Part shown: piece by piece, positions 5,089-47,448 of the stretch
How positions within the stretch are numbered: the first letter of the stretch is position 1
Layout of the letters: the number at the start of each line of letters is the position of its first letter
Assembly: GCA_016700335.1 (NCBI GenBank)
Contig: CP065014.1
Location: forward strand, 1,221,479-1,285,478
Direction of reading: 5' to 3'
Origin: Chlorobiota bacterium
GTDB taxonomy: Bacteria; Bacteroidota; Ignavibacteria; OLB7
DNA length: 64,000 bases
Translations under genes and position numbers: made by a program
The notes under the pieces: model-generated
What the model was told of the DNA's origin: nothing
The model's database searches: none
Seen by the model: only the letters and a program-made list of their open reading frames with translations

Positions 5089-6609
5089 ATGAAATTATTT
5101 TTTACTATTCTTACACTATTATTGATTTCATTTTCAGGAATTAAATTATCTGCTCAGATTTCTTCGAGAAATTATTTTGGACTTGAAGCTGGATTTAATT
5201 ACTCTGTTTTGAATGCAGATAGCGGTTTTATTTTTCCTTATTCAATTCCTTCTCAAGATTTTAATTCTGCTTTGGGTTTTAATAAATTAGGAGGAGGGTA
5301 TGGGTTTGTTGGAGGGTTTACTTTAGATTACGCAATAAATAAATCATTTGGTTTGATTATCAAAGCATTGTATCAAAGAAGATCAACTTCTAATACTGAA
5401 CAGTTTCTAACAAAAGTAGAAGATTTTTCAACTGGAACATCTGATATAGCAACAGTTGAAAATCAATACACTGCTTCATCTGATTATATAAATGGAGACT
5501 TATTACTTAAGATTTCTTTATCACCTGACGCTTGGTATGGTTATGGAGGTGTAAACTTAGCTTCAATTTTATCAAATAAATTTAGTGGAAAATCTACAAT
5601 AAAAAGTTCAGAATCTGGTACAGTACAATTTAAAAGCCCTACACAGGGTTTTCTTGGTACAGAAATGATCATTCCAGAGCAGGAGGCTTTAAATTTTTAT
5701 AACAATATTCATACTAGTATAAAATTAGGTGTAGGTAATTATATTTCAATTGGAGAAAGTGGAACAGTTATTACCCCTGAGTTAAGCGTGAATGTACCAA
5801 TTACAGAATTACTATCAACAAATTCAATTACAATCCTTAATAAAAATCTAGGTTTACCTCCAGCTAATCTAACATCAGCTGCTTTTACTGTAGGTATCAA
5901 ATTTCCTTTTGGTGATAATAAAAATAAACCTGAAGATAAAATTAATAATGACCCTGTTGGGAAAAATTCTAATGGATATTCTAATACTAATGATAATAAC
6001 AATTTAAAAGGAAATGTTAAGGATGCAAAAACTGGTAAACCTATTCCATCTGAAATGTCAATTGTAGATTTAAATACAGGTGAGGTTATAGAAAATTCAT
6101 CAACTGATCAAAATGGAAAATACAATGCAAATGTTACCAAAAAAGGGAAGTACTCTATTACTGCAACATCAAATGGGTATCTTTTTAATTCTAGTTTGTT
6201 TGAAGTTGATGATAATGGTAAAATAATTCGTAAAGGTAATGGTGATATTTTATTGATGTCTGCTGATGAAAGAGGAAAAACAACTCTATTAGTTTTCTTT
6301 GATACAGATAAATCAACACTACAAAGATCTTCTTACCCTGAACTTAATCGTGCAGCTCAATTTTTGAAAAGCAATCCGAATTTAAATATAGAAATTGCTG
6401 GGCATACTGACAACAAAGGAAGTATGGATTACAACAAGGATCTTTCAAAAAGAAGAGCTCAAACAGTATCAAATTACCTTATTAATAAAGGTGTAAATGC
6501 TTCTCAACTTGTGCAAACTGGCTATGGATTTGATTACCCAGTTAATACAAACGAAACCGAAGAAGGTAGAGCTGATAATAGGAGAGTTGAATTTGTTGTT
6601 AAAAAATAA
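5089..6609 (+). CDS. OmpA-family outer membrane protein (N-terminal barrel/porin-like region, carboxypeptidase-regulatory-like fold, C-terminal OmpA peptidoglycan-binding domain)
   Basis: Signal peptide, and a C-terminal OmpA motif block NLNIEIAGHTDNKGSMDYNKDLSKRRAQTVSNYLI...RRVEF. Confidence 0.8.
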   Translation: MKLFFTILTLLLISFSGIKLSAQISSRNYFGLEAGFNYSVLNADSGFIFPYSIPSQDFNSALGFNKLGGGYGFVGGFTLDYAINKSFGLIIKALYQRRSTSNTEQFLTKVEDFSTGTSDIATVENQYTASSDYINGDLLLKISLSPDAWYGYGGVNLASILSNKFSGKSTIKSSESGTVQFKSPTQGFLGTEMIIPEQEALNFYNNIHTSIKLGVGNYISIGESGTVITPELSVNVPITELLSTNSITILNKNLGLPPANLTSAAFTVGIKFPFGDNKNKPEDKINNDPVGKNSNGYSNTNDNNNLKGNVKDAKTGKPIPSEMSIVDLNTGEVIENSSTDQNGKYNANVTKKGKYSITATSNGYLFNSSLFEVDDNGKIIRKGNGDILLMSADERGKTTLLVFFDTDKSTLQRSSYPELNRAAQFLKSNPNLNIEIAGHTDNKGSMDYNKDLSKRRAQTVSNYLINKGVNASQLVQTGYGFDYPVNTNETEEGRADNRRVEFVVKK

Positions 6610-33409: not shown

Positions 33410-34159
33410 ATGAAAAAATACTTATTATTTACTTTTTTTGTTTTGTTATCTAATTTAACCTTGAGAGCACAAGAAGAACAAGGTGATTATGATATTACTG
33501 ATCCTACTGGTACTTTAATTGGTATTATGGGTGGTGGTGTGTTAAGTTCACCTCGCAATCCTTTCCCTTCGGTTAGAATTGGTGTAGATTCAAAAGATGG
33601 GACAAGCGAAGTTTCATCTGACATCTCTGAATTTTCGATTGGAAACAGAGTTGGTTTATTTGGAGTTATTGGTATTGTTAAGCAAATTGCAATTTCTTTA
33701 AATGTAGGCATGATGAAGTACGGAGTTAGTTATGCATCAACACCTAAAGTTAGTTTGCAATTGCAAACAATTCAAGCTGGAGGAGGAGTTCAAATTAATG
33801 TTTTAAATGATTTAAGATCTTTTAGAAGAGATTATGGATTACGCCAAATTTATGCTGATGTAGGTTTAGAAGCTGCTGTAACAACACTTGGTAATAAGGT
33901 TGAAGCTTATTCAATTGATGTAAACTCAAATAGAACTCCAGCAACTGGAAGTTTCCAAGATTCAAAACCTTTTGATAATACTCTTTCTCTTCATGGTGCT
34001 TTAGGTTTCCGTTATGCTTTAGGTATGCATTATGAACTTGGTTTTGAGGGTGGTTATAATTATGCGTTAGGTGGTGTGTTTAATAAAACTTCCTTACCAG
34101 ATTCAAAATTTACAATTGATAATGTTATGGTTCAAGTTGCTTTTGGTTATAGATTCTAA
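33410..34159 (+). CDS. hypothetical outer-membrane beta-barrel protein (249 aa)
   Basis: Signal peptide, Gly-rich alternating strands, and a C-terminal ...AFGYRF. Confidence 0.5.
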   Translation: MKKYLLFTFFVLLSNLTLRAQEEQGDYDITDPTGTLIGIMGGGVLSSPRNPFPSVRIGVDSKDGTSEVSSDISEFSIGNRVGLFGVIGIVKQIAISLNVGMMKYGVSYASTPKVSLQLQTIQAGGGVQINVLNDLRSFRRDYGLRQIYADVGLEAAVTTLGNKVEAYSIDVNSNRTPATGSFQDSKPFDNTLSLHGALGFRYALGMHYELGFEGGYNYALGGVFNKTSLPDSKFTIDNVMVQVAFGYRF

Positions 34160-34174
34160 TATGTTTTTTATTTA

Positions 34175-34209
34175 ACCCGCATTTGTTTTTTCAAATGCGG
34201 GTTTTTTTA
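34175..34209 (+). terminator. intrinsic terminator
   Basis: cccgcatttg-tttttt-caaatgcggg followed by T7. Confidence 0.8.
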
Positions 34210-34636
34210 TGTTTGACTTGAAGTAAAAAAAAGTTACAGCTAAATTATTTAATCCTGATGGTAGTTTATTATTCATTTTTAAATCCTGAATTGGATTTAC
34301 AATAATAGGAGTTTTTCGATGATAGTTTTTCCTTAATTTTTCTGTATTGATTGTAGTTTTATTTAACTATGAAACTGACTTAAAAGGTTTTGTAATCTTA
34401 AGAAAAATGGATAGAAAATTTAATATAATATAAGGCTTTCTAGTTGTTGTTTCAATATAGAATCCAAATTGTTTACTTCATCTAACTAGCATAATTTGTT
34501 CTTCTTCATTTCCAGATTACTTTTCACTAATTTCTACTTTTGTTGAGTAAGTTTAAATTCAACTATTGAATAAATTTGTGTTTCTCTTCTTCGGTAAAAG
34601 ACAAACTTGCCTTTTTAATGATTTTTTCGTTCATAT

Positions 34637-34677
34637 TTTACACTATTTAGTGTAAACCTATATTAGGACAAGGCATT
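34637..34677. repeat. inverted 41-bp copy (about 90% identical) of the IS left terminus found at 35259..35299
   Basis: The reverse complement of 34637-34677 aligns with 35259-35299 (…cttgtcct-aatat/gaaat-aggtttacactaaa[t/a]agtgtaaaa). Confidence 0.7.
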
Positions 34678-34810
34678 TTTTGAATCGTTGGAAATTTTTT
34701 AAAAACAATTTTGACCTGCGTTGGCTTTGCAAGCTCTTTGACAAAGCTTTGGTCTGTGCTTTGGCTTGTGGGGCTTTGGCAAAGTGCTTGCAAAATTCGT
34801 TGGCTATTTG

Positions 34811-35256
34811 TTAGTATGTCCATTCTCTGTGGCTTACAGGTAAACGATTTAATTCCTCTTTATAAAACTTCCATTGTGGCATATGCTTTTCCATCAAGGT
34901 CAGGAAACGGTCGTTGTGATGTCTTTCTGTAAAATGTATCATTTCGTGAACCACAATATATTCCAAACAATGCAAAGGTTTTTTTGCCAGTTCTAAGTTT
35001 ATCCAAATTCTTTTTTTCTCAATGTTGCAAGTTCCCCATTTGGTTTTCATTTGTTTTACTTGCCAGTCAGCAACTGTAACACCAATTTGTTTTCCCATTT
35101 GTCAATAATGGGCTGAATGAGTTTTTTTAATTCTGTCCGATACCATTCATTAATGATGATTTGTCTGTCGTTGGGTTGTGCGGTTGCGTATTTTTTATTT
35201 TCAGAAGGGAAGGATAATTTTTTTAATTCAATTTTTTCAGGGTGGGGCAGGCACAC
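34811..35256 (-). pseudogene. YgjP/DUF45-like HExxH metallohydrolase remnant (typical companion of type I RM loci), frameshifted and N-terminally truncated
   Basis: Two overlapping minus-strand ORFs (35056..35256 and 34811..35098) together give ...WYRTELKKLIQPIIDKW... then ...KTKWGTCNIEKKRIWINLELAKKPLHCLEYIVVHEMIHFTERHHNDRF (WGSCS...HE.xH core). No N-terminal roughly 80 aa remain, and the IS left end abuts the first codon. Confidence 0.65.
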
Positions 35257-35300
35257 TCTTTGTCTTGTCCTGAAATAGGTTTACACTAAAAAGTGTAAAA

Positions 35301-35732
35301 ATGGACAAAAAAATCATTCAAAAAGCAGGTAAGTATTATACCTTAGAAGAAAGACATCAAATCATTCAAGAGTTAATTGCGACTGGCTGTACTAAAGTTG
35401 AAATTTGGGAAAAATATACTGGAGATATAGAAGAACATGGTCAACTACTGCGCTGGATGCGTCAACTAGGATATAATGTTGGAATTAAAACAAGAAGGCC
35501 TAATATTGTATCAAATAATTATCTCATGGTAACTAAGAAATCAAAACCAGATAAGGAGATTAAAATTGAAGATGATTCTTTTGAAAATCTTCAATTAAAA
35601 AAACGAATTGCTGATTTGGAAAAGCAGTTAAAGGATGCCGAACTAAAGGCAATTGCATTTTCTACTATGGTAGATATTGCAGAAAAAGAGTTCAATATAC
35701 CGATTAGAAAAAAGCTCAATACCAAACCATAG
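35301..35732 (+). CDS. IS3-family transposase OrfA (HTH DNA-binding plus coiled-coil)
   Basis: 143 aa with an N-terminal HTH, a leucine heptad region LKKRIADLEKQLKDAELK, and an end 6 bp before the orfB ATG. Confidence 0.8.
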   Translation: MDKKIIQKAGKYYTLEERHQIIQELIATGCTKVEIWEKYTGDIEEHGQLLRWMRQLGYNVGIKTRRPNIVSNNYLMVTKKSKPDKEIKIEDDSFENLQLKKRIADLEKQLKDAELKAIAFSTMVDIAEKEFNIPIRKKLNTKP

Positions 35733-35737
35733 AAGTA

Positions 35738-36680
35738 ATGAAAAATAATTTTTCACACATAGGATTAGCCAAGTTATGTGGATGGTTTGGTATTACTAGA
35801 CAGGCTTATTATCAGAACAATTGGGAAGGAATATCTTCTACTCTAGAAGAAGATTTGATTATACATCAAGTAAAAGAAATTCGTAAAAATCATCGTAGAA
35901 TGGGAACACGAAAACTATATGAATTATTACAACCATTTATTCTTGAACATCAAATAAAAATAGGCAGAGATGCACTATTTAATATGCTTTCGGCTAATCA
36001 TTTATTAGTAAGAAAACGTAAACGTAGAATACAAACTACGAATTCATATCATTGGTTAAGAAAATATCCTAATCTCGTACGTGAGTTTGTACCAACTAAA
36101 ATCAACCAACTTTGGGTAAGTGATATCACTTATTGGAAAATAGATACTGGAGAGCATCTTTACATCAGTTTTATTACTGATGCATATTCACATAAGATAG
36201 TAGGCTATCAAGTAGCTGAAACTATGGAAGCGATAGAAAGTATTCAAGCATTGCAAATGGCTCTCTCTGGCTTGGGGCCAGAGAGCCATTTGCAACACCT
36301 ATCCAGTAAGTAATCTCATTCATCATAGCGATAGAGGTATACAATATTGTAGCAATGCTTATGTAAAGCTATTGAAAGATAATAATATCAATATTAGTAT
36401 GACAGAAAAAGGCGATCCATTAGAAAATGCAGTGGCAGAACGTGTAAATGGAATCATCAAAGATGAGTATTTAGAAACTTATAATATTGATAACTTAAAT
36501 GATGCTAAGGAATTACTTAAAGCTGTAGTAGATTTGTATAACAATGAAAGACCACATATGAGTATTGGAAACCATACACCAAATAATATACATCATTCAA
36601 AAACAAATATAAAAACCGATAGATTATGGAAAAACTATTATCGAAAAAAAACTACATTTGTAAACACAGTTCAGGACTAA
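35738..36680 (+). pseudogene. IS3-family transposase OrfB (DDE integrase core) interrupted by a 22-bp hairpin-forming insertion
   Basis: WVSDITYW...(frame break at about 36271-36292)...LIHHSDRGIQYCS...ENAVAERVNGIIKDE. Deleting 36271-36292 in silico restores a continuous ALQMALSGNTYPVSNLIHHSDRG frame. Confidence 0.75.
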
Positions 36681-36815
36681 ATAGAAACTGTAAACTAATA
36701 GTAGGATTAATTAATTAAACTGTAAACTTTTTTTAGGACGAGTCACTTTGCCAAGTTTTGGCTTGTGTGTTGGCTTGTGCGACTTGGCAATGTGTGTGAC
36801 TGCAGCGGTGGCTCA

Positions 36816-39800
36816 TTAGTTCTGATTTTTCTTAAAGTTTTCTGCTTGTTCAAAAATCTCAACATATACTTCGTCTCTCTCAACTGGTGGATAACCAAAC
36901 TCGTCAAGCAAGAGAATTAGTCCAACTTTTAATGCTGATTTGATGTCATCTCGTTTGTTCCAGTCAGGGAATTTGGCTTGCCCGTCAACCAAGTCTTTCA
37001 CGGCTTTTGCAAGGTCAATCATTTTGTCTTCAGGATATTTGAAGTCGTATTTTATACAGAGTTCTTTGAGTATGTCGTAAAATGCTTTTTCTTCAAAGTC
37101 AATTCCTAAAGCATCTCCTGCCGAAAATTCTTTGTGAACTTCCCAAATCAAATCTGTCAAAGCGGAAGCCATTTCTTCATACACTTCACTTCTCAAAATG
37201 TCGTTTGCATCACGGTCGTTGTAGCGTTCAACCAAGGCTTGCATCTTTTTGGTAAAGTCAATTCCTTTTACTCGGTTTACTTTTTTGATTTCTGCAATTA
37301 CTTTAGCCAATAATTGTTGAAGCAATTTGATTTTTGTATTCGGCAATTTGATTTTATCAATCTTAGCCAAATAATCTTCATCAAAAATGTCTTGTTCGGT
37401 TTCTGCTTCATCACCGAGTTTGAAAATTTCTTCAACTCCTTCACTTTGCAACGCTTCTTTTATCATTTCCCGAACTTTGGTATTCATCTGTGCTGTGTCG
37501 GGTGCATTGCCTTTGGTGAGTTTGAAAACAATGGAACGAACAGCCAAATAGAAATGTGTGTAATCTCTTTCTAACTGCGTTAATTGTTCGCTTCCTGCAC
37601 AAATATCATAAGCGGCTTTCAGTCGCTTTACCAAGCCCATAAATCGGGTTTCAAATTCTTTGGATTGTTGCACATATTCGGCTGCTAAATTCAAAGTGTT
37701 TAATTGCTGAATGGTTGTGCCTTTGAAATATTTTGAATTGTCAAATGTGTGAAACAGTTTAGCCAAGAGGTCTAAATGATTTCTTACAATGATGATGGAT
37801 TCTGCAATGTCTTCAAAATTGTCTTTGTCGCCTTCGCTGTATTGCTTCAACGCCAAATTCATTTGCGTTTTGATGCCGATATAATCCACAACCAAACCTT
37901 TATTCTTTCCTTCAAACTTGCGGTTTACTCTTGATATGGTTTGAATTAAATTGTGTCGCTGAATTGGTTTGTCAATGTAAATGCTGTCCAAGAACGGCAC
38001 ATCAAAACCTGTGAGCCACATATCAACCACAATTGCAATTTTGAAATTTGATTTTTCATTTTTGAATTGTCTATCAAGTTCTTTGCGTTGGTCTTTAGTT
38101 CCCAACAAATCATACATTACCTTCGGGTCGTCTTGTCCTCTGGTGGCAATGAGTTTAATACGTTCAATAGGTTTCAGTTCTCGTTTATCTTTGTCTGTAA
38201 GTTCTGCACCTTCTTCGGCTGCTCGTATTTCGTTCCATTCGGGTTTTATTTCAATAATGTTTTTATACAACTCATACGCAATTTCACGAGTGCTACACAC
38301 AAACATTGCTTTACCTTTTACGGTTGAACCTTCTGAAACCCTTTTTTCATAATGGTTTACAAAATCTTCGGCAACTGCTTTTAAACGGTCAGGGTCGCCA
38401 ATAATGGCATACATCTGAGCCATTTCTTTTTTGCTTTGTTCAATCTGATTTTCGTTGCTTCCTATCTCGGCACATTTTGCGTAATAATCTTCAATCTCTT
38501 TGAGTTTTGAATTATTCAACAACACTTTTGCTGCTCTGCCTTCATACACAATTCGAACAGTGATTTCATCTTTCACTGATTCAGTCATTGTGTAAGCATC
38601 AACAACTTTTCCAAACACATCAAGCGTTGCATCTATTGGCGTTCCTGTAAAGCCAACAAAAGTGGCATTGGGCAATGAATCGTGTAAATATTTAGCAAAG
38701 CCGTATGTTTTAGTAACGCCTTTCTCTGTAACTTTTACTTTTTGGTCAAGGTTTACTTGGCTTCTGTGTGCTTCGTCAGAAATGCAAATCACGTTTGGTC
38801 TATCAGTAAGCAATTGTGTGTCCTCTGTAAACTTGTGAATTGTGGTTAAGAAAACGCCTCCGCTTTGTCTGCCTTGAATTAATTCTCTTAGGTTGGCTCT
38901 GCTCTCAACACTCACCACTGTATTGTCACCAATAAAGTTTTTGGCATTGGTAAATTGTCCCGAAAGTTGGTCGTCTAAATCGGTGCGGTCGGTTATTAAA
39001 ACAATTGTTGGGCTTTCAAAATATTCGCTTTTCATCAACAACCTTGTCAAGTAAAGCATAGTAAAACTCTTTCCGCAACCAGTAGCACCAAAGTATGTTC
39101 CCCCCTTTCCATTTCCGTTGGGCTTTTGTGCTTTCTTGATATTGTCATACAATGCTCTTGCAGCATAGTATTGCGGATAGCGACAAACTATTTTTTCGTT
39201 TTTCTTAGAACTATCAGGAATGTAAATGAAGTTGCGGATAATATCACGCAAACGGTTTTTATGAAACATTCCTTGTATAAGTGTAAACATACTGTCAATG
39301 CCGTCCACTTCTTTTGCCAAACCTGCTACTCTTCGCCAGCCATAGAAAAACTCATACGGAGCAAAGAATGAACCTGACTTGTTGTTTACGCCATCGCTAA
39401 TAACACAAAAAGCATTGTATTTAAACAGTTCGGGAATGTCTCTGCGGTAACGAACAGTTAATTGCTTGAAAGCATCATAAATAGTGGCTTCTTCACGAAT
39501 GGCAGATTTAAATTCAAATACCACCAAAGGCAAACCATTGATATAAACAATGCCATCAGGAATACGTTTTTCTGAACCAATAATTTCTAACTGGTTTACG
39601 AATTTGTAAATATTAGTGTCGGCAGGATAAACTTCTTCGGGTTCGGCTGCAATAGAAATTAACTGGTCTGCTTCGGGCTGGCGGTGCTTATTTAAACCTG
39701 CGTAATTGATAAGTTGAATGTAAATATCCTTTTGATTACGGTCTTCTCGTTTAAGAATAAAACCGTCAGAAAGCATTTTTAAAAATGTTTTGTTGCTTTC

Positions 39801-40028
39801 ATAAAGGTCAGAAGCAGAAAGTGATTTGAGTTGAAGAATAATAGATTTGATTTCATTTACCGTAATGCCTTGACCAGCGTATTGCGTTAAAAGAAAGGTT
39901 TGTAAATCTTCTTCTATTAATACTTCGTCAGGCTTACGAGTTATCGTAATGCCCAAGTGGTGGGGAAATCCTTCTTGCCCCAACAATTCGGTAAATGCCT
40001 TTTCTAAACTTGCCTCTGTAAATTTCAT
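36816..40028 (-). CDS. hsdR: type I restriction enzyme R subunit
   Basis: 1070 aa with the HsdR N-terminal nuclease region, SF2 helicase motifs including DEAH (VICISDEAHRSQ), and a position downstream of hsdM/hsdS. Confidence 0.92.
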   Translation of the reverse strand: MKFTEASLEKAFTELLGQEGFPHHLGITITRKPDEVLIEEDLQTFLLTQYAGQGITVNEIKSIILQLKSLSASDLYESNKTFLKMLSDGFILKREDRNQKDIYIQLINYAGLNKHRQPEADQLISIAAEPEEVYPADTNIYKFVNQLEIIGSEKRIPDGIVYINGLPLVVFEFKSAIREEATIYDAFKQLTVRYRRDIPELFKYNAFCVISDGVNNKSGSFFAPYEFFYGWRRVAGLAKEVDGIDSMFTLIQGMFHKNRLRDIIRNFIYIPDSSKKNEKIVCRYPQYYAARALYDNIKKAQKPNGNGKGGTYFGATGCGKSFTMLYLTRLLMKSEYFESPTIVLITDRTDLDDQLSGQFTNAKNFIGDNTVVSVESRANLRELIQGRQSGGVFLTTIHKFTEDTQLLTDRPNVICISDEAHRSQVNLDQKVKVTEKGVTKTYGFAKYLHDSLPNATFVGFTGTPIDATLDVFGKVVDAYTMTESVKDEITVRIVYEGRAAKVLLNNSKLKEIEDYYAKCAEIGSNENQIEQSKKEMAQMYAIIGDPDRLKAVAEDFVNHYEKRVSEGSTVKGKAMFVCSTREIAYELYKNIIEIKPEWNEIRAAEEGAELTDKDKRELKPIERIKLIATRGQDDPKVMYDLLGTKDQRKELDRQFKNEKSNFKIAIVVDMWLTGFDVPFLDSIYIDKPIQRHNLIQTISRVNRKFEGKNKGLVVDYIGIKTQMNLALKQYSEGDKDNFEDIAESIIIVRNHLDLLAKLFHTFDNSKYFKGTTIQQLNTLNLAAEYVQQSKEFETRFMGLVKRLKAAYDICAGSEQLTQLERDYTHFYLAVRSIVFKLTKGNAPDTAQMNTKVREMIKEALQSEGVEEIFKLGDEAETEQDIFDEDYLAKIDKIKLPNTKIKLLQQLLAKVIAEIKKVNRVKGIDFTKKMQALVERYNDRDANDILRSEVYEEMASALTDLIWEVHKEFSAGDALGIDFEEKAFYDILKELCIKYDFKYPEDKMIDLAKAVKDLVDGQAKFPDWNKRDDIKSALKVGLILLLDEFGYPPVERDEVYVEIFEQAENFKKNQN

Positions 40029-40051
40029 TTATAATTGTTAATGATAAATGG

Positions 40052-40423
40052 TTAATTGTTAATGTTTGCTTTAACGGATTTAATTATACTTGTAATAAGT
40101 TTGATAATTTCTACAGCATCATTGTTTATACTTTCAAATTGTTCTTGGGTTAAGTAATCAGTATCTTTTAGAAGTTCAAGCCAGTAAATAGTCTCGTTAA
40201 TTTCTTTTTGAGCTATACCCATCTTATGCTTGAAATCGTTTTTGGTTTCTGCGTGTTCCGCCTCTCTAACCATTGCACCTACAGAAGTACCACTTCTAAG
40301 TAGTTGTTTTGAAAGCACAAACTCCTTTTTCTGCTTACACAAAAACTGATAGAGTTTTACCACCCTCACCGCAAACAAAAAACTCTTATTCTTTACAATG
40401 TTATCTCTCATTACTTTAACCAT
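40052..40423 (-). CDS. four-helix-bundle protein (TIGR02436-like; formerly '23S rRNA intervening-sequence protein')
   Basis: LSKQLLRSGTSVGAMVREAEHAETKNDFKHKMGIAQKEINETIYWLELL fits the conserved S..L.RS..S...N..E pattern of this family. The family is often embedded in RM loci. Confidence 0.7.
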   Translation of the reverse strand: MVKVMRDNIVKNKSFLFAVRVVKLYQFLCKQKKEFVLSKQLLRSGTSVGAMVREAEHAETKNDFKHKMGIAQKEINETIYWLELLKDTDYLTQEQFESINNDAVEIIKLITSIIKSVKANINN

Positions 40424-41415
40424 TTATCATTAACAATTAACCATTGAACACCAACCATTCTTTCTTGAATCATTTTTAATGTTTTCAAAATGGCTTCTTC
40501 TTTTGGTAATTCTCCATATACCAAATTTTTGAAGTCACCGTTGTAAATAGTTTTCAACTCATTCCATACATTTTCTAAGTCTCTAAAAATAAGTGCTTCA
40601 CTAGGATGATAATTTAGCCATTTATTATTGTTTCTAAAACTTGCAACATCATCATTGGCTACTTTTAAAAGCATTTCATCAAATGCCGTTGATTGAAAGA
40701 ATTTAAAGAACTCATCTTGTTTAAGTAGCTGATGTAAATCGTAGGTGTGCCGTATCTTTTTCTTTAAATCATCCATTGGATTTTCGCCATAAGAAAAACG
40801 AACCAAACTCATTATTTTCTCGCAAATGGTTCTTATTGGTTCTAATGCCAACAAGTTAAAAGGAAGTAGTCCGTTTTCTTTAGCAATATCAGACTGCTTA
40901 TTATCTAGCATCATTTGGCCAACAAATGAAACGATGCTTTTGGTGGTGTAAGGTTCGTAATATCCCAACCAAGTTGATTCCAAAATGATAACATTTCTTA
41001 CTTGGCCGTAATCGCCTTTAAATTCTTTGTTGTAGGAATGTGCCGTTTTTCGATTCATCCCCATTTTATGGGTAACGCCATCGATAGGTACTTCGGGCAA
41101 TACGGCTTCTACAACTGTGCTTACTGCTTTTAATTTTGATTTTAACTTGCTGTCTGTTTCTCCTTCTCGTCTCAATACTACCAAATCAATATCTTCCGAA
41201 AAGCGTTCTATCATATTGTAACATTTGGATAGTGCCGTTCCGCCTTTAAATACCGTGTCTTTGCCAATTTCATTATTGAAAATGGTAAACAAAGCATATG
41301 TAACCCAATAGTCTTTTTCTACATAAATGGCAGGGATTTTCATTTGGTCAGCTGTAAACTGTATCGCTTGTCTGAATAAGGTTTTGTTTTCGTGCAGCTT
41401 CATATTATGTTCCAT
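40411..41415 (-). CDS. abiEii: AbiEii/AbiGii-family nucleotidyltransferase toxin (DUF1814)
   Basis: FKGGTALSKCYNMIERFSEDIDLVV is the hallmark motif. The gene overlaps the upstream AbiEi-like gene by 16 bp. Confidence 0.82.
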   Translation of the reverse strand: MEHNMKLHENKTLFRQAIQFTADQMKIPAIYVEKDYWVTYALFTIFNNEIGKDTVFKGGTALSKCYNMIERFSEDIDLVVLRREGETDSKLKSKLKAVSTVVEAVLPEVPIDGVTHKMGMNRKTAHSYNKEFKGDYGQVRNVIILESTWLGYYEPYTTKSIVSFVGQMMLDNKQSDIAKENGLLPFNLLALEPIRTICEKIMSLVRFSYGENPMDDLKKKIRHTYDLHQLLKQDEFFKFFQSTAFDEMLLKVANDDVASFRNNNKWLNYHPSEALIFRDLENVWNELKTIYNGDFKNLVYGELPKEEAILKTLKMIQERMVGVQWLIVNDKWLK

Positions 41416-42125
41416 TTTTCGGTGGTGGATAATACTTTCGCTGCACCGGTTAGTTTATACTTGGTAATGGGGTTCAATGACTTGAAAAGTGTCTCTGTTA
41501 CTTTGCCTTGCTGCAATTGCTCTAACAGTGCACCTAATAAAGCCCTTGTAGCTGGCGGATATTTTAAAGCTAAGCGAACCAAGGTGTTGATTTCCTTTTC
41601 ATCTTGTGTTTTAATAATGGCTAAAAACCTTTTGCAGGATGCTTCTATATTGGCATCTGGTATTTTTTTTATGTAGCGAATAGCATCCAGTAACTGCAAC
41701 AAAGGAATATTCTCTTTGGTGATGGTGTTTTTTTGCTTTACAAAAGCTATCGTATAGCGTTCTCTTTTAAAATTGGGGCGAACCTGATTTTTACCTATCT
41801 GTATCGTATTGCTTACCTGTGTGGTTAAGCCCAATTGGTTGTATATGCTGTAACCCGTGAGATAGCCCGTTATTTTTCCGTTTTCTTCTAATAGGTCTTT
41901 TACTACTTGTGCCTGATTGGGTTGAAGGTTGCCAAATGGGGTATTTTCGGGTTTGTAGTATTTGCCTTTGGATAGTTTGGTAATCTTGCCCGAAATCACC
42001 ATACGATTCAGGGCTTTTATTACCGCTTCTTTTTGGTTCACCTCTGTAGTAAAGTCAGCATAGGTGAATACATAGCCCTTGGGTAGTCTGTCTATGGTAA
42101 ATGCTATGTATTCAGATATTTTCAT
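41400..42125 (-). CDS. abiEi: AbiEi-family antitoxin / transcriptional regulator (wHTH, DUF6088-like)
   Basis: LPKGYVFTYADF...GKITKLSKGKYYKPE matches the AbiEi-family N-terminal wHTH pattern, and it sits immediately upstream of and overlapping abiEii. Confidence 0.72.
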   Translation of the reverse strand: MKISEYIAFTIDRLPKGYVFTYADFTTEVNQKEAVIKALNRMVISGKITKLSKGKYYKPENTPFGNLQPNQAQVVKDLLEENGKITGYLTGYSIYNQLGLTTQVSNTIQIGKNQVRPNFKRERYTIAFVKQKNTITKENIPLLQLLDAIRYIKKIPDANIEASCKRFLAIIKTQDEKEINTLVRLALKYPPATRALLGALLEQLQQGKVTETLFKSLNPITKYKLTGAAKVLSTTEKWNII

Positions 42126-42157
42126 TCTTTTTATTGTAGTGCAAAGATAATTGATTT

Positions 42158-42186
42158 GTCCAGTTTATTAGCAAAAAAACTGGACA
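42158..42186. promoter_or_regulatory. 10-bp-arm inverted repeat (tgtccagttt N9 aaactggaca) 30-60 bp upstream of abiEi; candidate operator
   Basis: Perfect arms at 42158-42167 and 42177-42186. Confidence 0.45.
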
Positions 42187-42202
42187 TTTTGAAAATTGAT
42201 TG

Positions 42203-42245
42203 AGTGGTAGTAACTTCGCAACGCAGTTGCGAAGTTACTACCACT
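42203..42245. promoter_or_regulatory. perfect palindrome with 20-bp arms and a 3-nt centre, lying between the 3' end of the upstream nuclease-like gene and abiEi
   Basis: agtggtagtaacttcgcaac-gca-gttgcgaagttactaccact. No U tract follows on the minus strand. Confidence 0.6.
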
Positions 42246-42269
42246 GAAAGTTTTGATATTTTGGATAGA

Positions 42270-43436
42270 TTAAAAAGGTAAATCATCATCTAATTCTAAC
42301 GGTTCAGTTATTACGTTTACTTGTTTTGCACCCTCAACAATAAATTTGGCTCTTTCAAAAAGTTCGTCAAATGTTAATATTTCAACATTTCTGCTGTCCC
42401 TTCTGAATAGCTCCAAAGTTTTCTTTTTTATCTCTTTTTCTAATGTATTGCTGGAATTTTCAAGTTCCTTCCAATCTCCAATTATTAAAATAACTTTTGA
42501 ATCGTGTGCTTTTTGCGTTAACGGTTCTCCGTTGATGTATTGCGGACTATCTAAACGAATTAATCCCGAAGCTTTATGTTCTAGTATTTGAGAAACAGAT
42601 TCAATCAAGTCGTTTGAAAGTTTCCAAGAGTTGGAGCGGTTTCCCTTGTTCGCAAACAAAAGGGTAGAAGGTTTCTTTAATTCAACAAAGGTTGTAAAGA
42701 AGTTATCACCCAATAGATAATCTCCAATTACGGTATTTGAGCCGTCTAACTCTGCATAAGAAAGATGAACTTCTCTTTGCAGAATTTCTTGATAGCGATA
42801 ATCTAAACCATAGCCAAAAATCCACTGATTTTTTTCAAAAAAGTATTGCCAAACTTTTTCTTCACTGTGTTTTTTCAAGCCGTTTGCTTCGGCATAGGTT
42901 TTCCAATATTCCGAATTGTTTTTTAAGTCTGAAAATATTTGAAGTCCTCGTTTTCTAAATGCTGTGTTTACAATATCCTTTGATGAAATGATACCTTCAT
43001 TTATCAAAGCTTCAACTAATTCAGCACCGCCTTTTTTTGATAATAATGTTTTAACGGAACGTATAGAATCTGCATCTAATTCTTGGTCTTCTATAATTTT
43101 CAGACGCTTTTCAGTAATTCCTTTTAAATCAATTTCGCTTATGAAAGAAAGGAATGCTTTTAATTGAGCAAAGTTGAATTTACTCAATTTGATTCTTTCA
43201 GTTTCTTTGTTGTGAACTACTTTGATTAACTCAAATCCTTCAATATCATTTTGGTCTGTTATGTAAACGACTTTCAACATCGTTCTTGGAGCAAATTTTA
43301 AAACAGCACCTTTTTCATCTTCGTGTACCACTTGAAAGAATCGCCCTGCTTCAAACTCGTGCCAGTATAAACGATTGGGTTTGTAGTTTGAAATTATCTC
43401 TTCTTCCGAAGTTGTATTTTGGGAAATCCGGCTCAT
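42270..43436 (-). CDS. candidate PD-(D/E)xK nuclease-fold protein, Shedu/DUF4263-like, nested in the type I RM operon (388 aa)
   Basis: C-terminal half: ...WIFGYGLDYRYQ...VIGDYLLGDNFFTTFVELKKPSTLLF...KVILIIGDW shows a D...D-x(n)-E-L-K arrangement consistent with a restriction-endonuclease-like core. There are no ATPase motifs, and the N-terminal roughly 200 aa are unassigned. Confidence 0.45.
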   Translation of the reverse strand: MSRISQNTTSEEEIISNYKPNRLYWHEFEAGRFFQVVHEDEKGAVLKFAPRTMLKVVYITDQNDIEGFELIKVVHNKETERIKLSKFNFAQLKAFLSFISEIDLKGITEKRLKIIEDQELDADSIRSVKTLLSKKGGAELVEALINEGIISSKDIVNTAFRKRGLQIFSDLKNNSEYWKTYAEANGLKKHSEEKVWQYFFEKNQWIFGYGLDYRYQEILQREVHLSYAELDGSNTVIGDYLLGDNFFTTFVELKKPSTLLFANKGNRSNSWKLSNDLIESVSQILEHKASGLIRLDSPQYINGEPLTQKAHDSKVILIIGDWKELENSSNTLEKEIKKKTLELFRRDSRNVEILTFDELFERAKFIVEGAKQVNVITEPLELDDDLPF

Positions 43437-43441
43437 AGTTT

Positions 43442-44531
43442 TTAATTTTCTATTGTCGCTAATTTGGAAAGTAGTAAATCTTTCAGTTCCGTTAGCTTTT
43501 GGGTTTCTAATTGCTTGAAGTTGATTTGCGTGAAAATTTTCTTGGCTAAGAAATCAAAATTAAAAGCCATTTCATCATTTGGAAGAACAGTCTCAATTTC
43601 ATAGAGCATATCATATGAAACAAATGGTTGTGAACTCCCTCTTGTGTTTGACATCAAATCTTTTGATAATAATGTCAAGTATGAGAACCATTTCAAACTT
43701 TCATGTTTTGCTAAACATTTAACACCATTGTAGGTCACGAAGTGTTTTCCAAATGCAAAAACAACCTTTCCGCAATATTCTCCCATGTGACCTATAACTG
43801 GTGCGTCTTCACTATTATATTCATCATAACCACCAATTACACCACCAGCTCCATAAATTGAAAACTGACCACCATTGTTAGGATTGGTATTCCCAATTCC
43901 ATATTGGAATTTGTATAAATCCTCAAGTGTTCCTTTTCTCCACCCCTCAGGCAAATTCTCCAAATCAATTCCCTCCACAAACCATTGCTTATAAATAGCC
44001 TGTGCGGTTTCTTCTAGCTTTTGTATCAGTTGCTGGTTTAGGGCTATGCGGTTTTGGATAACATTGTATTCTTTTACTATTTCTTTTTGTTTGTCAAGGT
44101 GCGGAATGGGTATTTGCATATCACAAAAGGATTTCCAAGGTAAACCACCTCTTACATCTGCATCGGTATAAAACCAAGCATTACGGTCAAACTCTCGTAC
44201 GAGTAAACCACATCATCAAAAATTCAGGATTAAGAATTTCGGTGTCTTTGATTTCAAATACATCATAAGCAGGTGAAACCATAAATTCTTCATCAGATTT
44301 TGACATCGAAATTGGCAAACGGTAATCTCTACCTACGTGCATTCTATTGCAAGCAAATTGATTTTTTCTTACGAGCTTGTAAACAGATAAATCAGTTCCG
44401 ACAATATTAGCAACTGAAGGCATAAAGAATTTATCAATATTAATTCCTAAAAGCTGTTCCGCTTTTTCTTCTGAGTTGCGAATTTTCAATTCCTGTATGT
44501 AATCGCCTAAGCGGCTATAATTTGATTTCAT
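43442..44531 (-). pseudogene. hsdS: type I RM specificity subunit HsdS, split by a frameshift within the first target-recognition domain
   Basis: ORF 44187..44531 carries the N-terminal TRD. ORF 43442..44119 carries the end of that TRD (IPIPHLDKQKEIV), the central conserved region, TRD2 and the C-terminal conserved region. The ORF2 frame stays open up to 44212, so the shift lies at about 44190-44215. Confidence 0.7.
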
Positions 44532-46065
44532 AACCCAAATCTTTAAACACGGTTAGTAAATCATTTTTTGAAGCTGCTTCGGCTTTCAGCAAATCCGCGA
44601 ATTCGTTTTTCAGTGTTTGCATTTTTTCATCAAAATCTATTTTCTCATCACGGTTTACAAATTCAATGTATTTGCTCGGCACGAGTGAAAAATCTTTTTT
44701 TACTACTTCTTCCAAAGTTGCAGAATAGCAGAACTCGGGAATGTTTTCAATTTCATTGCATTGCCATTGGTGGTAAGAGCCTGTAATCTTGATTATATCT
44801 TCTTCTGAAAACTGAATATATTTTTTCTCAAACGGAATTCCTATTTGTCGTAAATCCATAAATAGAATTTCCTTTTCTCTATTTCGGTAATTGCGGGTTT
44901 CATCACCAATTATTCTTGTATGAGCTTTTTTATTCTTATTCAAAATCCAAAGCGTTACACTAATGTTGGTGGTATAAAACATATCTTGTGGTAATACCAA
45001 AATCGATTCAACCAAATTATTTTCAATCAGCTTTTTGCGTATTTTATATTCTTCGCCACCACCACTCAATGCACCATTTGCCAATATAAAACCAGCAATT
45101 CCGTTTTCGGAAAGTTTGGAAACCATATTCAAAATCCAACCATAGTTGGCGTTGCTTTTTGGTGGCACATCATAACCTCTCCAACGTGGGTCGTCAATCA
45201 ATTCATTTTCGCCTCGCCAGTCTTTTTGGTTAAAAGGTGGGTTTGCCATTATGTAATCGGCTTTCAAGTCTTTGTGTTGGTCGTCCGCAAATGTGTCGGC
45301 ATCTTTTTCACCAAGGTTTGCAGAAATACCTCTTATGGCAAGGTTCATCTTTGCAAGTTTGTATGTTGTTTTGGTGTATTCCTGTCCGTAAATAGAAACT
45401 TCTTTTTGGTTTCCGTGGTGTGCTTCAATAAACTTAATGGATTGAACAAACATACCTCCCGAACCACAAGCAGGGTCATAGATAATTCCTTTGTATGGCT
45501 CAATCATTTCTGAAATAAGGCTTACAATTGTCTTTGGCGTATAGAATTCTCCTTTGCCTTTTCCTTCTGCAATCGCAAACTTTTTCAAGAAGTATTCATA
45601 CACACGCCCAACCAAATCTTGTCCTTTGTCTTTGAGTGTATTGATGCTGTCAATTTCGCTAATCAAAGAAGCCAGTTTGGTAATGTCTAAACCCAAACGA
45701 GAAAAGTAATTATCGGGCAATGCACCTTTCAAAGCTTTGTTGTCTTTTTCAATAGTATGCAAGGCTGTATCAATTATTAAAGCAATATCATTTTGTCTTG
45801 CCTTTTTAACAATGTAGCTCCAACGTGAAATTTCTTCCAAGAAAAACACATTGCTCATATTGTAGAACTCAGGCTTCTCAATATACTTTTCTTTGCCTTC
45901 GGCAATCAATTTGGTTCGGTGTTCTTCAAACTTGTCGCTTGCAAACTTTAAGAATACAAGTCCTAATACAACGTGTTTATATTCGGCTGGCTCAACGCTT
46001 CCTCTCAATTTATTTGCAGCTTCCCAAAGGGTAACTTCAATTGCTTTTTCTTTTACCTTAAACAT
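44515..46065 (-). CDS. hsdM: type I RM DNA methyltransferase subunit (N6-adenine)
   Basis: The N-terminal HsdM domain, an AdoMet motif DPACGSGGMFV, and the catalytic NPPF (IMANPPFNQKDW). The 3' end overlaps hsdS by 17 bp. Confidence 0.92.
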   Translation of the reverse strand: MFKVKEKAIEVTLWEAANKLRGSVEPAEYKHVVLGLVFLKFASDKFEEHRTKLIAEGKEKYIEKPEFYNMSNVFFLEEISRWSYIVKKARQNDIALIIDTALHTIEKDNKALKGALPDNYFSRLGLDITKLASLISEIDSINTLKDKGQDLVGRVYEYFLKKFAIAEGKGKGEFYTPKTIVSLISEMIEPYKGIIYDPACGSGGMFVQSIKFIEAHHGNQKEVSIYGQEYTKTTYKLAKMNLAIRGISANLGEKDADTFADDQHKDLKADYIMANPPFNQKDWRGENELIDDPRWRGYDVPPKSNANYGWILNMVSKLSENGIAGFILANGALSGGGEEYKIRKKLIENNLVESILVLPQDMFYTTNISVTLWILNKNKKAHTRIIGDETRNYRNREKEILFMDLRQIGIPFEKKYIQFSEEDIIKITGSYHQWQCNEIENIPEFCYSATLEEVVKKDFSLVPSKYIEFVNRDEKIDFDEKMQTLKNEFADLLKAEAASKNDLLTVFKDLGYEIKL

Positions 46066-46431
46066 ACCAAAGTTGGTTGGATTTGTCTGGTTTTGTTGTT
46101 CATGGAGTTGAGATTTATTATTTGATTTTGTTAAATGTAGGTTGAATCGTCTGCAACACTTTCAGTTAACATACAAAAATACACTTATAATTCATATTAA
46201 TTAAAATCTAGAATATAATTATTATCTCAAGTAATTACATTGTTTGCATCAACTCTTGAATGATATTTTTTTACTAGTAAAATGTAAAATAATTACCTAA
46301 CCTTTAATTATATTTTTATCAATGTTTTACACTTTTTATCTTCAACAATTTTAGAACAATTAGTTTAAATGTTATTGTATGTGTTTAACTTATTTAAAAA
46401 CTTATATTTGTAAAAATATTTACAACACAAA

Positions 46432-47448
46432 ATGGGATTTTTTGATAAAATAAAGAAAGGAGTAATTGATGCAGTTGAAGAAACCAAGGTTTCATTAAAA
46501 GAAACAATTGATGCACTTAGATCAGATAGGTTAAAAGAAGGACTTGCAAAAACAAGGGAGGGAATTTTTGAAAAACTGAATTTAGTTTTAGGTACAAATA
46601 GAATAATAGATGATAAAGTTTTAGATGAAATTGAAGAGGCTTTATTGTTAGCTGATGTAGGAGTACCGACAACAATAAAAATTAGTGATCAAGTAAGATT
46701 TAGGTGTAGAAATGAAGGAATTACTGATACTGATGGATTATCAATTTTACTTCAAGAAGAAATTACGAATGCTTTAATCAAATCACCATCAGCGAATAAT
46801 GATAAATTATTTGTAATACCAAATGAAAAAAAGCCACTAGTTATAATTGTTGTTGGAGTAAATGGAGTAGGTAAAACAACAACAATTGGCAAGTTGGCAT
46901 TTAATTATAAAAATGCTGGTCATAAAGTTATAATTGGTGCTGCTGATACTTTTAGAGCAGCTGCTAATGAACAGTTAGAGGTTTGGGCTAATAGGGCTGG
47001 TGTTGATATAGTTGGTCAAGGTCAAGGGGCTGACCCTGCTGCCGTTGCTTACGATACAGTTAAAGCTGCAATTTCAAGGGGAAGTGATGTAGTTATAATT
47101 GATACTGCTGGTAGGCTTCATAACAAAACAAACTTGATGGATGAGTTAAAGAAAATTAATAGGGTGATAAAGAAATTAAAATCTGAAGCACCTGATGAAG
47201 TATTCTTAGTTTTAGACGCAACAACTGGCCAAAATGCAATTCAACAAGCAAAAGAATTTATGCTTGCAACTGTTGTTACAGGGTTAGTGTTAACAAAACT
47301 TGATGGAACTGCTAAAGGAGGTGTTGTAATTGCAATTGCAGATACTTTGTCAATACCTGTCAGATATATTGGAGTAGGTGAGAAGATTGAAGATTTGCAA
47401 CCATTTTCTGCTAAAGAATATGCTGCAGCTTTATTTGAAAAAAAATGA
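46432..47448 (+). CDS. ftsY: signal recognition particle receptor FtsY (short form)
   Basis: NG domain with GVNGVGKTTTIGKLA, DTAGR and TKLDGTAKGG. Confidence 0.92.
   Translation: MGFFDKIKKGVIDAVEETKVSLKETIDALRSDRLKEGLAKTREGIFEKLNLVLGTNRIIDDKVLDEIEEALLLADVGVPTTIKISDQVRFRCRNEGITDTDGLSILLQEEITNALIKSPSANNDKLFVIPNEKKPLVIIVVGVNGVGKTTTIGKLAFNYKNAGHKVIIGAADTFRAAANEQLEVWANRAGVDIVGQGQGADPAAVAYDTVKAAISRGSDVVIIDTAGRLHNKTNLMDELKKINRVIKKLKSEAPDEVFLVLDATTGQNAIQQAKEFMLATVVTGLVLTKLDGTAKGGVVIAIADTLSIPVRYIGVGEKIEDLQPFSAKEYAAALFEKK

Follow-up and report, generated by a model that had tools for sequence, protein, structure and literature searches.

Type I restriction-modification (RM) operons can carry embedded defence genes, the rlo genes of Campylobacter hsd loci being a further example. 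Using 'guilt-by-embedding', embedded genes were found to be frequent in type I RM, BREX and DISARM systems (Payne et al. 2024, 10.1101/2024.01.29.577857). Likewise, a survey of 5,499 Shedu genes placed 602 of them within RM systems, type I included (Gu et al. 2023, 10.1101/2023.08.10.552793), and the type I RM operon on VPI-2 of V. cholerae contains TgvAB (PMC11411939). The embedding of defence genes in type I RM operons, Shedu included, is already published. A second known class that bears on this work is the 23S-rRNA intervening sequence (IVS), which in Coxiella is 428 nt long and contains an S23p open reading frame (ORF), inverted repeats and heptameric repeats beside the ORF (PMC4990558). 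Here, we analysed a 64,000-nucleotide stretch (the window) of contig CP065014.1 (positions 1,221,479 to 1,285,478, assembly GCA_016700335.1) from a low-G+C 'Chlorobiota/Kapaibacteria-like' metagenome-assembled genome (MAG). Positions 34214-46363 of the window very probably constitute a horizontally acquired defence block, with a type I RM operon as its backbone and the stretch between hsdS and hsdR as a cargo slot.

ORF listing and profile searches gave the minus-strand order hsdM, hsdS, sduA, abiEi, abiEii, a four-helix-bundle gene and hsdR. Beyond hsdR follow an IS3 insertion sequence (IS), with its ORFs on the plus strand, and then a relic of a YgjP/DUF45 gene on the minus strand. This gene order and the coordinates had been read from the letters alone in a preliminary description, and the ORF listing together with the Pfam, PADLOC and NCBIfam profiles reproduced them, as well as the flanking genes for an outer-membrane protein (OMP) beta-barrel on the left (33410-34159) and FtsY on the right (46432-47448). 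Its statement that all genes are on the minus strand was wrong, the three IS3 ORFs (35301-36680) being on the plus strand. The PADLOC run proposed there matched the MTase_I, REase_I, SduA, AbiEi and AbiEii models, and type I RM, Shedu and AbiE are packed into 9.3 kb. HsdR, SduA and FtsY have exact protein matches in QQS67547.1, QQS67550.1 and QQS67553.1, respectively. The composition of the window is not uniform. G+C is 34.6% in the block and 28.5% in the remaining window, with 1-kb peaks of 0.37-0.39 in hsdR, hsdM and abiEi; the enrichment described earlier is real, and the by-eye estimate of 38-40% was too high. G+C at third codon positions (GC3) separates the block from the host much more sharply than overall G+C, with a mean of 0.31 (range 0.22-0.41) over the ORFs of the island, compared with 0.151±0.030 over 41 ORFs of the host (Mann-Whitney p=4e-6). 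For HsdR, the four-helix-bundle protein, SduA and AbiE, proteins with 85-95% identity occur on contigs that bear the labels Ignavibacteria, Emticicia, Bacteroidetes and Weeksellaceae, whereas a GTDB-wide scan returned nothing above 74% identity for the host FtsY (best 71-74%, in Kapaibacteriota/Bacteroidota MAGs). The locus shows the marks of a defence island: clustering of unrelated systems, association with mobile elements (IS3 and two IS relics) and outlying GC3.

Both edges of the block coincide with IS remains. On the left, host DNA extends to the intrinsic terminator of the OMP gene (34174-34203, plus strand), whose 12-bp stem includes 6 GC pairs and precedes a T-run. Immediately past it sits relic #1 (34214-34675, minus strand), an internally deleted copy of an IS3-family element resembling a miniature inverted-repeat transposable element (MITE), with an end like the right inverted repeat (IRR) at 34214 and one like the left inverted repeat (IRL) at 34675. 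Both ends of the intact IS match it in inverted orientation, with 72-77% identity (blastn E=2.6e-33), and it is present in all same-species contigs, of which L091 departs from the window exactly at 34675 (numbers with L denote the contigs and loci compared). On the right, hsdM and ftsY are separated by a 366-nt divergent promoter region with no terminator; the strong terminators said to bound the block are thus confined to the left side. This spacer contains relic #3 (46248-46363, minus strand), a left-end fragment of an IS3-like element that we take as the right limit of the block. Relic #3 matches IS positions 27-117 (blastn E=8e-8; local alignment score of 66 against 27±2.8 for shuffles), has the same orientation as relic #1 and ends about 70 bp before the ftsY start.

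The cargo slot of the window holds sduA, abiEi/abiEii and a 408-bp cassette with the four-helix-bundle gene, hereafter IVP. Metagenome operons with hsdR 67-95% identical to that of the window contain other cargo between hsdS and hsdR, namely RhuM (18 loci), DUF4917, three AAA_13 ATPase kinds, AAA_15, AbiE, Schlafen/AlbA_2 with HATPase_c_4, NA37, YhcG/DUF1016 and reverse transcriptase with HAD. In L103-L112, the cargo consists of DUF4917 and RhuM or of AAA_13 and RhuM. L115 is 87.8% identical in nucleotide sequence to the window from 42217, in the abiEi promoter region, to 36746, 70 nt past hsdR, and has an AAA_13 gene and a 137-nt hsdR 5' stub in place of sduA. The order in L194 is hsdS-(4 nt)-sduA-RhuM fragment-IVP-(23 nt)-hsdR, whereas L124 has its IVP gene farther upstream and AbiE fused directly to hsdR. 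A near-identity search of a plasmid collection found one weak hsdR match only, on the Chryseobacterium plasmid NZ_CP041688, in which hsdR is 70.7% identical and DUF4062, a nucleotidyltransferase (NTase), S-4TM and DUF4145 lie between hsdS and hsdR. Because related operons keep hsdM/hsdS and hsdR and differ in the cargo between them, the nested cassettes of the preliminary description are, judging from these alignments, real and exchangeable. Composition and cargo variation also agree with its view of a horizontally acquired island with unrelated defence modules between the M/S and R genes.

How the cargo enters is hinted at by sister loci. In four of them, hsdR 5' stubs of about 19-52 codons lie directly upstream of inserted cassettes (L114:1703-1858, L115:6388-6524, L141:1857-1964 and L124:~5367-5430), which suggests that cassettes may enter via recombination involving the hsdR 5' end; no such stub is present in the window. 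Cargo would probably be exchanged by recombination between conserved flanks, namely the 3' end of hsdS and, opposite it, either the IVP arm or the 5' end of hsdR. As a side observation, the cargo slots of L113 (21-692) and L124 (3631-4341) showed a weak IS200-like Y1 transposase homologue with long tandem peptide repeats (GIAQND/NNETP units) inside it.

The backbone itself is readily assigned. The methyltransferase HsdM (44515-46065, minus strand, 516 aa) matches the PADLOC MTase_I model with E=3.9e-147 and contains the NPPF motif in its translation ('MANPPFNQ'); a 516-aa homologue at the same locus in L096 is annotated HsdM_N and N6_Mtase. An exact look-up of the HsdM protein returned no record, and from codon 4 on hsdM is 83.7% identical in nucleotide sequence to L115. 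The hsdM gene is also a mosaic between strains, as L096 has about 45 differences within 45094-45600 and about 9 across the rest of 44073-46100, a pattern that suggests a recombination tract at 45094-45600. The restriction subunit HsdR (36816-40028, minus strand, 1070 aa) matches REase_I with 1249 bits over residues 1-1069, shows HSDR_N, SWI2_SNF2/ResIII, T1R_D3-like and T1RH-like_C domains in Pfam, and carries 'DEAH' and 'D...EFK' in its translation. At the amino-acid level it is 90-95% identical to the metagenome loci L113, L115 and L123.

An extra G at 44197 splits the specificity gene hsdS (43442-44531, minus strand) into two ORFs, 44187-44531 and 43442-44119; deleting this G restores an ORF of 362 aa. 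One intact HsdS with two target-recognition domains is therefore not encoded in this assembly, and sister contigs are intact: the extra G is absent from L096, and L082 annotates an intact HsdS of 362 aa. The frameshift noted in the preliminary description is present in the window and confined to this assembly. Phase variation of hsdS was considered and rejected, since the extra G lies outside simple repeats and no invertible hsdS copies are present. A similar lesion affects the IS3 element, in which orfB is broken by a 2-bp deletion after 36294; inserting GC restores the frame. The deletion is absent from L082, L083 and L084, and the latter two have an intact orfB of 314 aa. An alternative explanation for both lesions is that they are assembly errors in a long-read-derived MAG and that the island is fully functional, for which the chances appear only slightly short of even. 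Independent short-read contigs of the same species lack both changes (L096, L083, L084), and the sister assembly L082 shows many 1-bp gaps relative to the window, clustered within the IS. Neither change, however, is in a homopolymer, and the compared contigs come from other samples or strains, making true polymorphism equally possible. The assignment of the locus to type I RM stands in either case, and its function in this genome is in doubt.

Of the cargo, Shedu and AbiE are recognizable by their profiles. The 388-aa gene starting 5 nt after hsdS (42270-43436, minus strand) had been described as nuclease-like. It is not an uncharacterised gene, as PADLOC, Pfam and the alignment to PDB 8TI8 agree in assigning it as Shedu SduA, a PD-(D/E)xK nuclease by homology. 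The PADLOC model PDLC00392 covers its full length (E=3.7e-124), Pfam SduA_C (PF14082) matches with E=1.1e-21, and the catalytic D...E-x-K is conserved with the solved B. cereus SduA (PDB 8TI8, E=6e-11). In the alignment to 8TI8/8TI9, GDYLL...VELK stands opposite VDFLY...IEIK, with IAIK in the 8TI9 construct. An exact look-up of SduA found only a 1.5-kb contig. The AbiE abortive-infection pair comprises abiEi (41400-42125, minus strand), encoding the antitoxin and putative autorepressor (PADLOC AbiEi E=2.9e-59; Pfam DUF6088), and abiEii (40411-41415, minus strand), encoding the nucleotidyltransferase toxin (Pfam AbiEii PF08843 E=2.1e-25; PADLOC AbiEii E=1.8e-104). The abiEi gene precedes abiEii with a 16-nt overlap. 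The AbiEii profile match stops at residue 318 of 334, and the last 8 abiEii codons are encoded by the 5' arm of the IVP cassette. At the AbiEii junction of L124, which is without the IVP cassette, the native C-terminus is different.

The least expected item of the locus is this IVP cassette at the edge of the cargo slot (40032-40439, minus strand, 408 bp). Its four-helix-bundle gene belongs to 23S_rRNA_IVP/TIGR02436 and was listed as ORF 40052-40423, or 40052-40411 when read from the ATG that overlaps the abiEii stop (TAATG). The protein matches PF05635 (E=5e-30), TIGR02436 and PDB 2RLD (E=7e-43), and belongs to the Avd-like family, which is homologous to Avd of diversity-generating retroelements (DGRs; PMC10053308). 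The cassette is bounded by the two arms of a perfect 24-nt inverted repeat (40032-40055 and 40416-40439), of which the 3' arm ends 3 nt ahead of the hsdR ATG. Homology with operons having RhuM upstream starts exactly at the 5' arm. We assessed the cassette stem with per-sequence inverted-repeat and folding statistics instead of column-wise covariation, because the heptad arrays described below make alignments ambiguous. For the window, a long-range stem was predicted in both the minimum-free-energy and the centroid structures (z=-3.76).

In 78 related loci, the gene is flanked by heptad arrays of the TTAATGG/TTAATTG type upstream and by their complement downstream. The longest perfect inverted repeat has a median of 11 nt in these loci compared with 6.8 in shuffles. 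Pairing of at least 10 bp between the two flanks was predicted in 58 of 61 distinct elements, and the median pairing was 29 bp, against a baseline of 13 bp for shuffled 3' flanks that is high because both flanks are A/T-rich (p=7e-11). ORF-less arm pairs occur at seven places in related loci and at none in 2.6 Mb of control loci. One such case was observed in hsdM of L115 (~2545-2630; window 44742-44795), where an in-frame insertion of 78 nt consists of the 5' heptad arm, 16 nt and the 3' arm, with no ORF. This insertion is reminiscent of the Rickettsia palindromic elements, as a miniature palindromic element inside a coding sequence. Relatives of IVP also occur in RM systems of other types, and some have housekeeping genes as neighbours on both sides (RelA/SpoT, an aconitase pair, TilS and MurB). 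Within the related operons the position of IVP varies, as it can precede abiE or hsdM, occur in two copies around cargo, or be missing (L124, L155, L169 and L192).

Seen against the known intervening sequences, the cassette has an S23p/PF05635 ORF inside stem-forming inverted repeats and lacks the location within a 23S rRNA helix; an Rfam search of the whole window detected neither rRNA nor any other RNA family. Because it lies between abiEii and hsdR with no rRNA in the window, the cassette is IVS-like at most and not an IVS member. The preliminary description had counted the four-helix-bundle gene as a defence cassette, which it probably is not, with relatives also between housekeeping genes. 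To judge from its structure and distribution, it is probably a selfish intervening-sequence-like element living in mRNA. We further propose, tentatively and as something a little short of probable, a widespread palindromic selfish family in which an IVP ORF lies within inverted TTAATGG-type heptads, the mRNA counterpart of the 23S-rRNA intervening sequences. Such elements may colonise inter-cistron gaps in RM, defence and housekeeping operons, overwriting the 3' codons of upstream genes; their miniature ORF-less forms may insert in frame into genes, and the full elements may mark the 3' edge of the cargo slot in this RM family. We infer RNA processing of the cassette and any effect on hsdR. 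If the 24-bp stem were cut by RNase III, as the Coxiella intervening sequence is (PMC4990558), hsdR mRNA would be severed from the transcript of M/S and cargo, and the balance of restriction to modification would be altered. Near-identical IVP copies could, if the proposal is true, also serve as homology for swapping defence cassettes.

Alternatively, the IVP protein could have a function in the operon, as an Avd-like regulator that binds nucleic acid and acts on hsdR or on the cassette slot. Its unusual conservation (>120 clusters at 83-93% amino-acid identity), its constant distance of 23 nt before hsdR in many operons, its intact ORF and its homology to DGR Avd (PMC10053308) would fit such a role. 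We nevertheless regard it as unlikely, since the gene changes position or is absent in L124, L155, L169 and L192, relatives lie between the RelA/SpoT, aconitase, TilS and MurB genes, ORF-less miniature arm pairs exist, and PADLOC has no model for the protein.

Gaps between the genes are minimal: hsdM and hsdS overlap, hsdS and sduA are 5 nt apart, abiEi and abiEii overlap, abiEii and IVP share TAATG, and 23 nt separate IVP from hsdR. Set apart from these is the 144-nt spacer between sduA and abiEi. It contains a putative abiEi promoter/operator (42142-42186, minus strand), consisting of a TAtcTTTG motif (42149-42142) and a 10-bp inverted repeat, TGTCCAGTTT (42186-42177) and AAACTGGACA (42166-42157), at 32-61 nt before the ATG. 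At the same place, L124 has TGTCAAGTTTT and AAAACTTGACA, with both arms changed and the repeat kept. At the left edge of the AbiE cassette is a palindrome with 23-nt arms and a 3-nt loop (42200-42248, 96% complementary, no strand assigned), and the L115 homology begins inside its right arm, at 42217. The palindrome may be an attenuator after sduA. Its loop (42223-42225) reads GCA on the plus strand of the window; L082 has the reverse complement, TGC, as would result from a flip of the hairpin tip. No minus-strand terminator-like site was found between genes inside the operon. The single RM transcription unit put forward in the preliminary description is possible on this basis, but the palindrome and the promoter/operator-like region lie between sduA and abiEi, and at least one internal promoter is likely.

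From family knowledge, HsdM2S would methylate host DNA and HsdR2M2S would cut unmodified DNA, Shedu would attack incoming DNA, and AbiE would kill or arrest cells in which infection proceeds. The outcome would be layered immunity with expression largely from one strand and almost no intergenic space. The block is partly decayed in this genome, with hsdS frameshifted in this assembly, the DUF45 relic, an active multicopy IS3 element inserted 70 bp after hsdR, and IS3-end relics on both edges.

Could the embedded genes depend on the Hsd proteins as accessory or regulated partners, in the way PrrC is masked by EcoprrI? The tight and recurrent spacing would agree with this (4-5 nt between hsdS and sduA here and in L194; 23 nt between IVP and hsdR in many loci). 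TgvAB protects better inside the type I RM cluster than alone (PMC11411939). PrrC is almost exclusively embedded in type I RM. The cargo, however, is highly variable around a constant backbone, and AbiE carries its own promoter/operator-like region. AbiE also works as a stand-alone system. Shedu likewise works on its own (10.1101/2023.08.10.552762). Partnership with the Hsd proteins is thus a rather improbable explanation, and exchangeable cargo in a conserved RM slot is the reading we retain.

Several points weigh against reading the block as an acquired and working defence island. No block-free OMP-ftsY junction was found among same-species contigs, every one of which carries the block where it reaches the locus (at least 5 independent samples), and the block looks fixed within the species. 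The nearest genomes are too distant for the synteny comparison proposed in the preliminary description, as the nearest species-level genomes (71-74% FtsY) share none of the neighbours of this ftsY, the Rieske and tRNA-synthetase genes on the host side included. A role of IS elements in bringing the block in would have to be read from degenerate end relics only, and a target-site duplication around the whole block was rejected as too weak, with 8 of 10 positions matching between 34204-34213 and 46364-46373. The hsdS frameshift, if real, would abolish both methylation and restriction. The palindrome and the abiEi promoter-like region would argue for at least two transcription units, and the activity attributed to every module derives from homology. 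The 10-mers just outside the IS-relic ends, TTTTTATGTT (34204-34213) and TTTAAATGTT (46364-46373), could be an old target duplication or an AT-rich coincidence.

Within the species, the block varies in the IS insertion, the hsdM mosaic and the junction of L097, and other same-species contigs break at 34744/34745 and 46026-46034. L097 is 98.7% identical, retains ftsY, the adjacent spacer and hsdM codons 1 and 2, and departs at hsdM codon 3. We considered L097 as an empty site and rejected it, its tail being a diverged, inverted homologue of the region of the hsdR 3' flank and DUF45 relic (score of 43 against 19±1.9 for shuffles). An alternative, rearranged or inverted module is possible there (L097:4375-4770, junction at window 46057), and the contig ends early. 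That the locus is a vertically inherited core RM locus, its G+C raised by selection on proteins, is very improbable: it would account for the unchanged location of the block across all same-species contigs (at least 5 independent samples) and the lack of an empty site, but not for doubled GC3 at the position least constrained by protein sequence, block proteins 85-95% identical elsewhere when FtsY reaches 74% at most, IS-end relics on both edges, or the departure of a 98.7%-identical strain at hsdM codon 3. Horizontal acquisition accordingly remains our preferred origin for the block.

Downstream of hsdR, the IS3-family element (35261-36745, plus strand, 1485 bp) matches NCBIfam transpos_IS3 (NF033516) and is inserted 70 bp past hsdR. 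It has TG...CA inverted repeats, orfA (35301-35732), an A6G slippery site at 35708 for -1 frameshifting, orfB (35738-36680) with a DDE transposase, and a 3-bp target-site duplication, CTT (35258-35260 and 36746-36748). L091 shows the empty site (...cacactctt|tgccaag), and the insertion is polymorphic. The element is multicopy, as beyond its right end three assemblies each continue into a sequence of their own. The exit of L083 and L084 from the IS into unrelated genes was considered as a sign that they lack the RM operon and was rejected in favour of a multicopy IS, through either repeat-bridged assembly or real rearrangement.

The metallopeptidase pseudogene of the YgjP/DUF45 type (34811-35256, minus strand) has no N-terminus and one frameshift, and keeps HExxH (HEMIH). 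PF01863 matches at 34811-35098 (E=5.9e-32, profile positions 125-206 of 207) and weakly at 35056-35256 (positions 81-129). The IS3 element was rejected as the cause of the truncation, the identical truncated start being found at the IS-free site of L091 and in L115. In L091 (6311-6420), about 110 bp of unrelated sequence replaces window 34676-~35160, the C-terminal part of DUF45, abutting the end of the IS relic, a second structural polymorphism at the left edge. A TTGGC/GCCAA-rich motif occurs just downstream of both the DUF45 relic (34744-34776) and hsdR (36753-36785) with 79% identity, and a 22-nt inverted repeat lies past the DUF45 stop (34726-34747/34773-34794). The breaks of four Logan contigs at 34744/34745 hint at a dispersed repeat.

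As a defence island, the locus adds little to what is catalogued, Shedu and other systems in type I RM operons being described already. Its value is that of a clean, well-bounded example from an uncultured lineage of the Fibrobacterota-Chlorobiota-Bacteroidota (FCB) group. Its sister operons reveal the bounds of the cargo slot, from the 3' end of hsdS to the IVP arm or the 5' end of hsdR, and the hsdR stubs hint at the mechanism of exchange. The IVP cassette, if confirmed, would link the rRNA intervening sequences, an old unexplained class, to a broader mRNA-dwelling family and would suggest a post-transcriptional break point inside RM operons.

The block resembles the embedded-defence type I RM operons of Payne et al., TgvAB and PrrC in EcoprrI in having unrelated same-strand genes between the hsd genes, minimal spacing and cargo that varies around a conserved RM backbone. 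It differs in stacking two known systems and an intervening-sequence-like cassette in one slot, in its uncultured FCB-group lineage and in the hsdR 5' stubs of sister loci. Like other Shedu genes in RM systems, sduA shows a full-length SduA model match, the D...ExK residues and a position directly after hsdS; its N-terminal region differs in being without a Pfam match and covered by the PADLOC subtype model only. With AbiE type IV toxin-antitoxin systems, the pair shares the PF08843 nucleotidyltransferase with a GG...SEDIDL motif, an overlapping upstream AbiEi-like gene and a promoter inverted repeat, whereas its AbiEi is of the DUF6088 type and the C-terminus of AbiEii is replaced by 8 cassette-arm codons. 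The IS3 element is a typical family member (orfA/orfB with an A6G -1 frameshift, a DDE rve domain, TG...CA ends, a 3-bp duplication and multiple copies), apart from the 2-bp orfB deletion in this copy and the two degenerate relatives on the block edges. With the 23S rRNA intervening sequences of Coxiella and Leptospira (PMC4990558), the IVP cassette agrees in size (about 400 nt, with 408 nt for the cassette and 428 nt in Coxiella), in encoding a protein of that family between inverted repeats that form a long stem, and in having heptameric repeats beside the ORF. Derivatives without an ORF and a patchy distribution through horizontal spread are also common to both. In contrast to the rRNA elements, the cassette resides within a protein-coding operon, between abiEii and hsdR, instead of 23S rRNA, and its arms are TTAATGG/TTAATTG-type heptad arrays; the last codons of the upstream gene before its stop come from the 5' arm.

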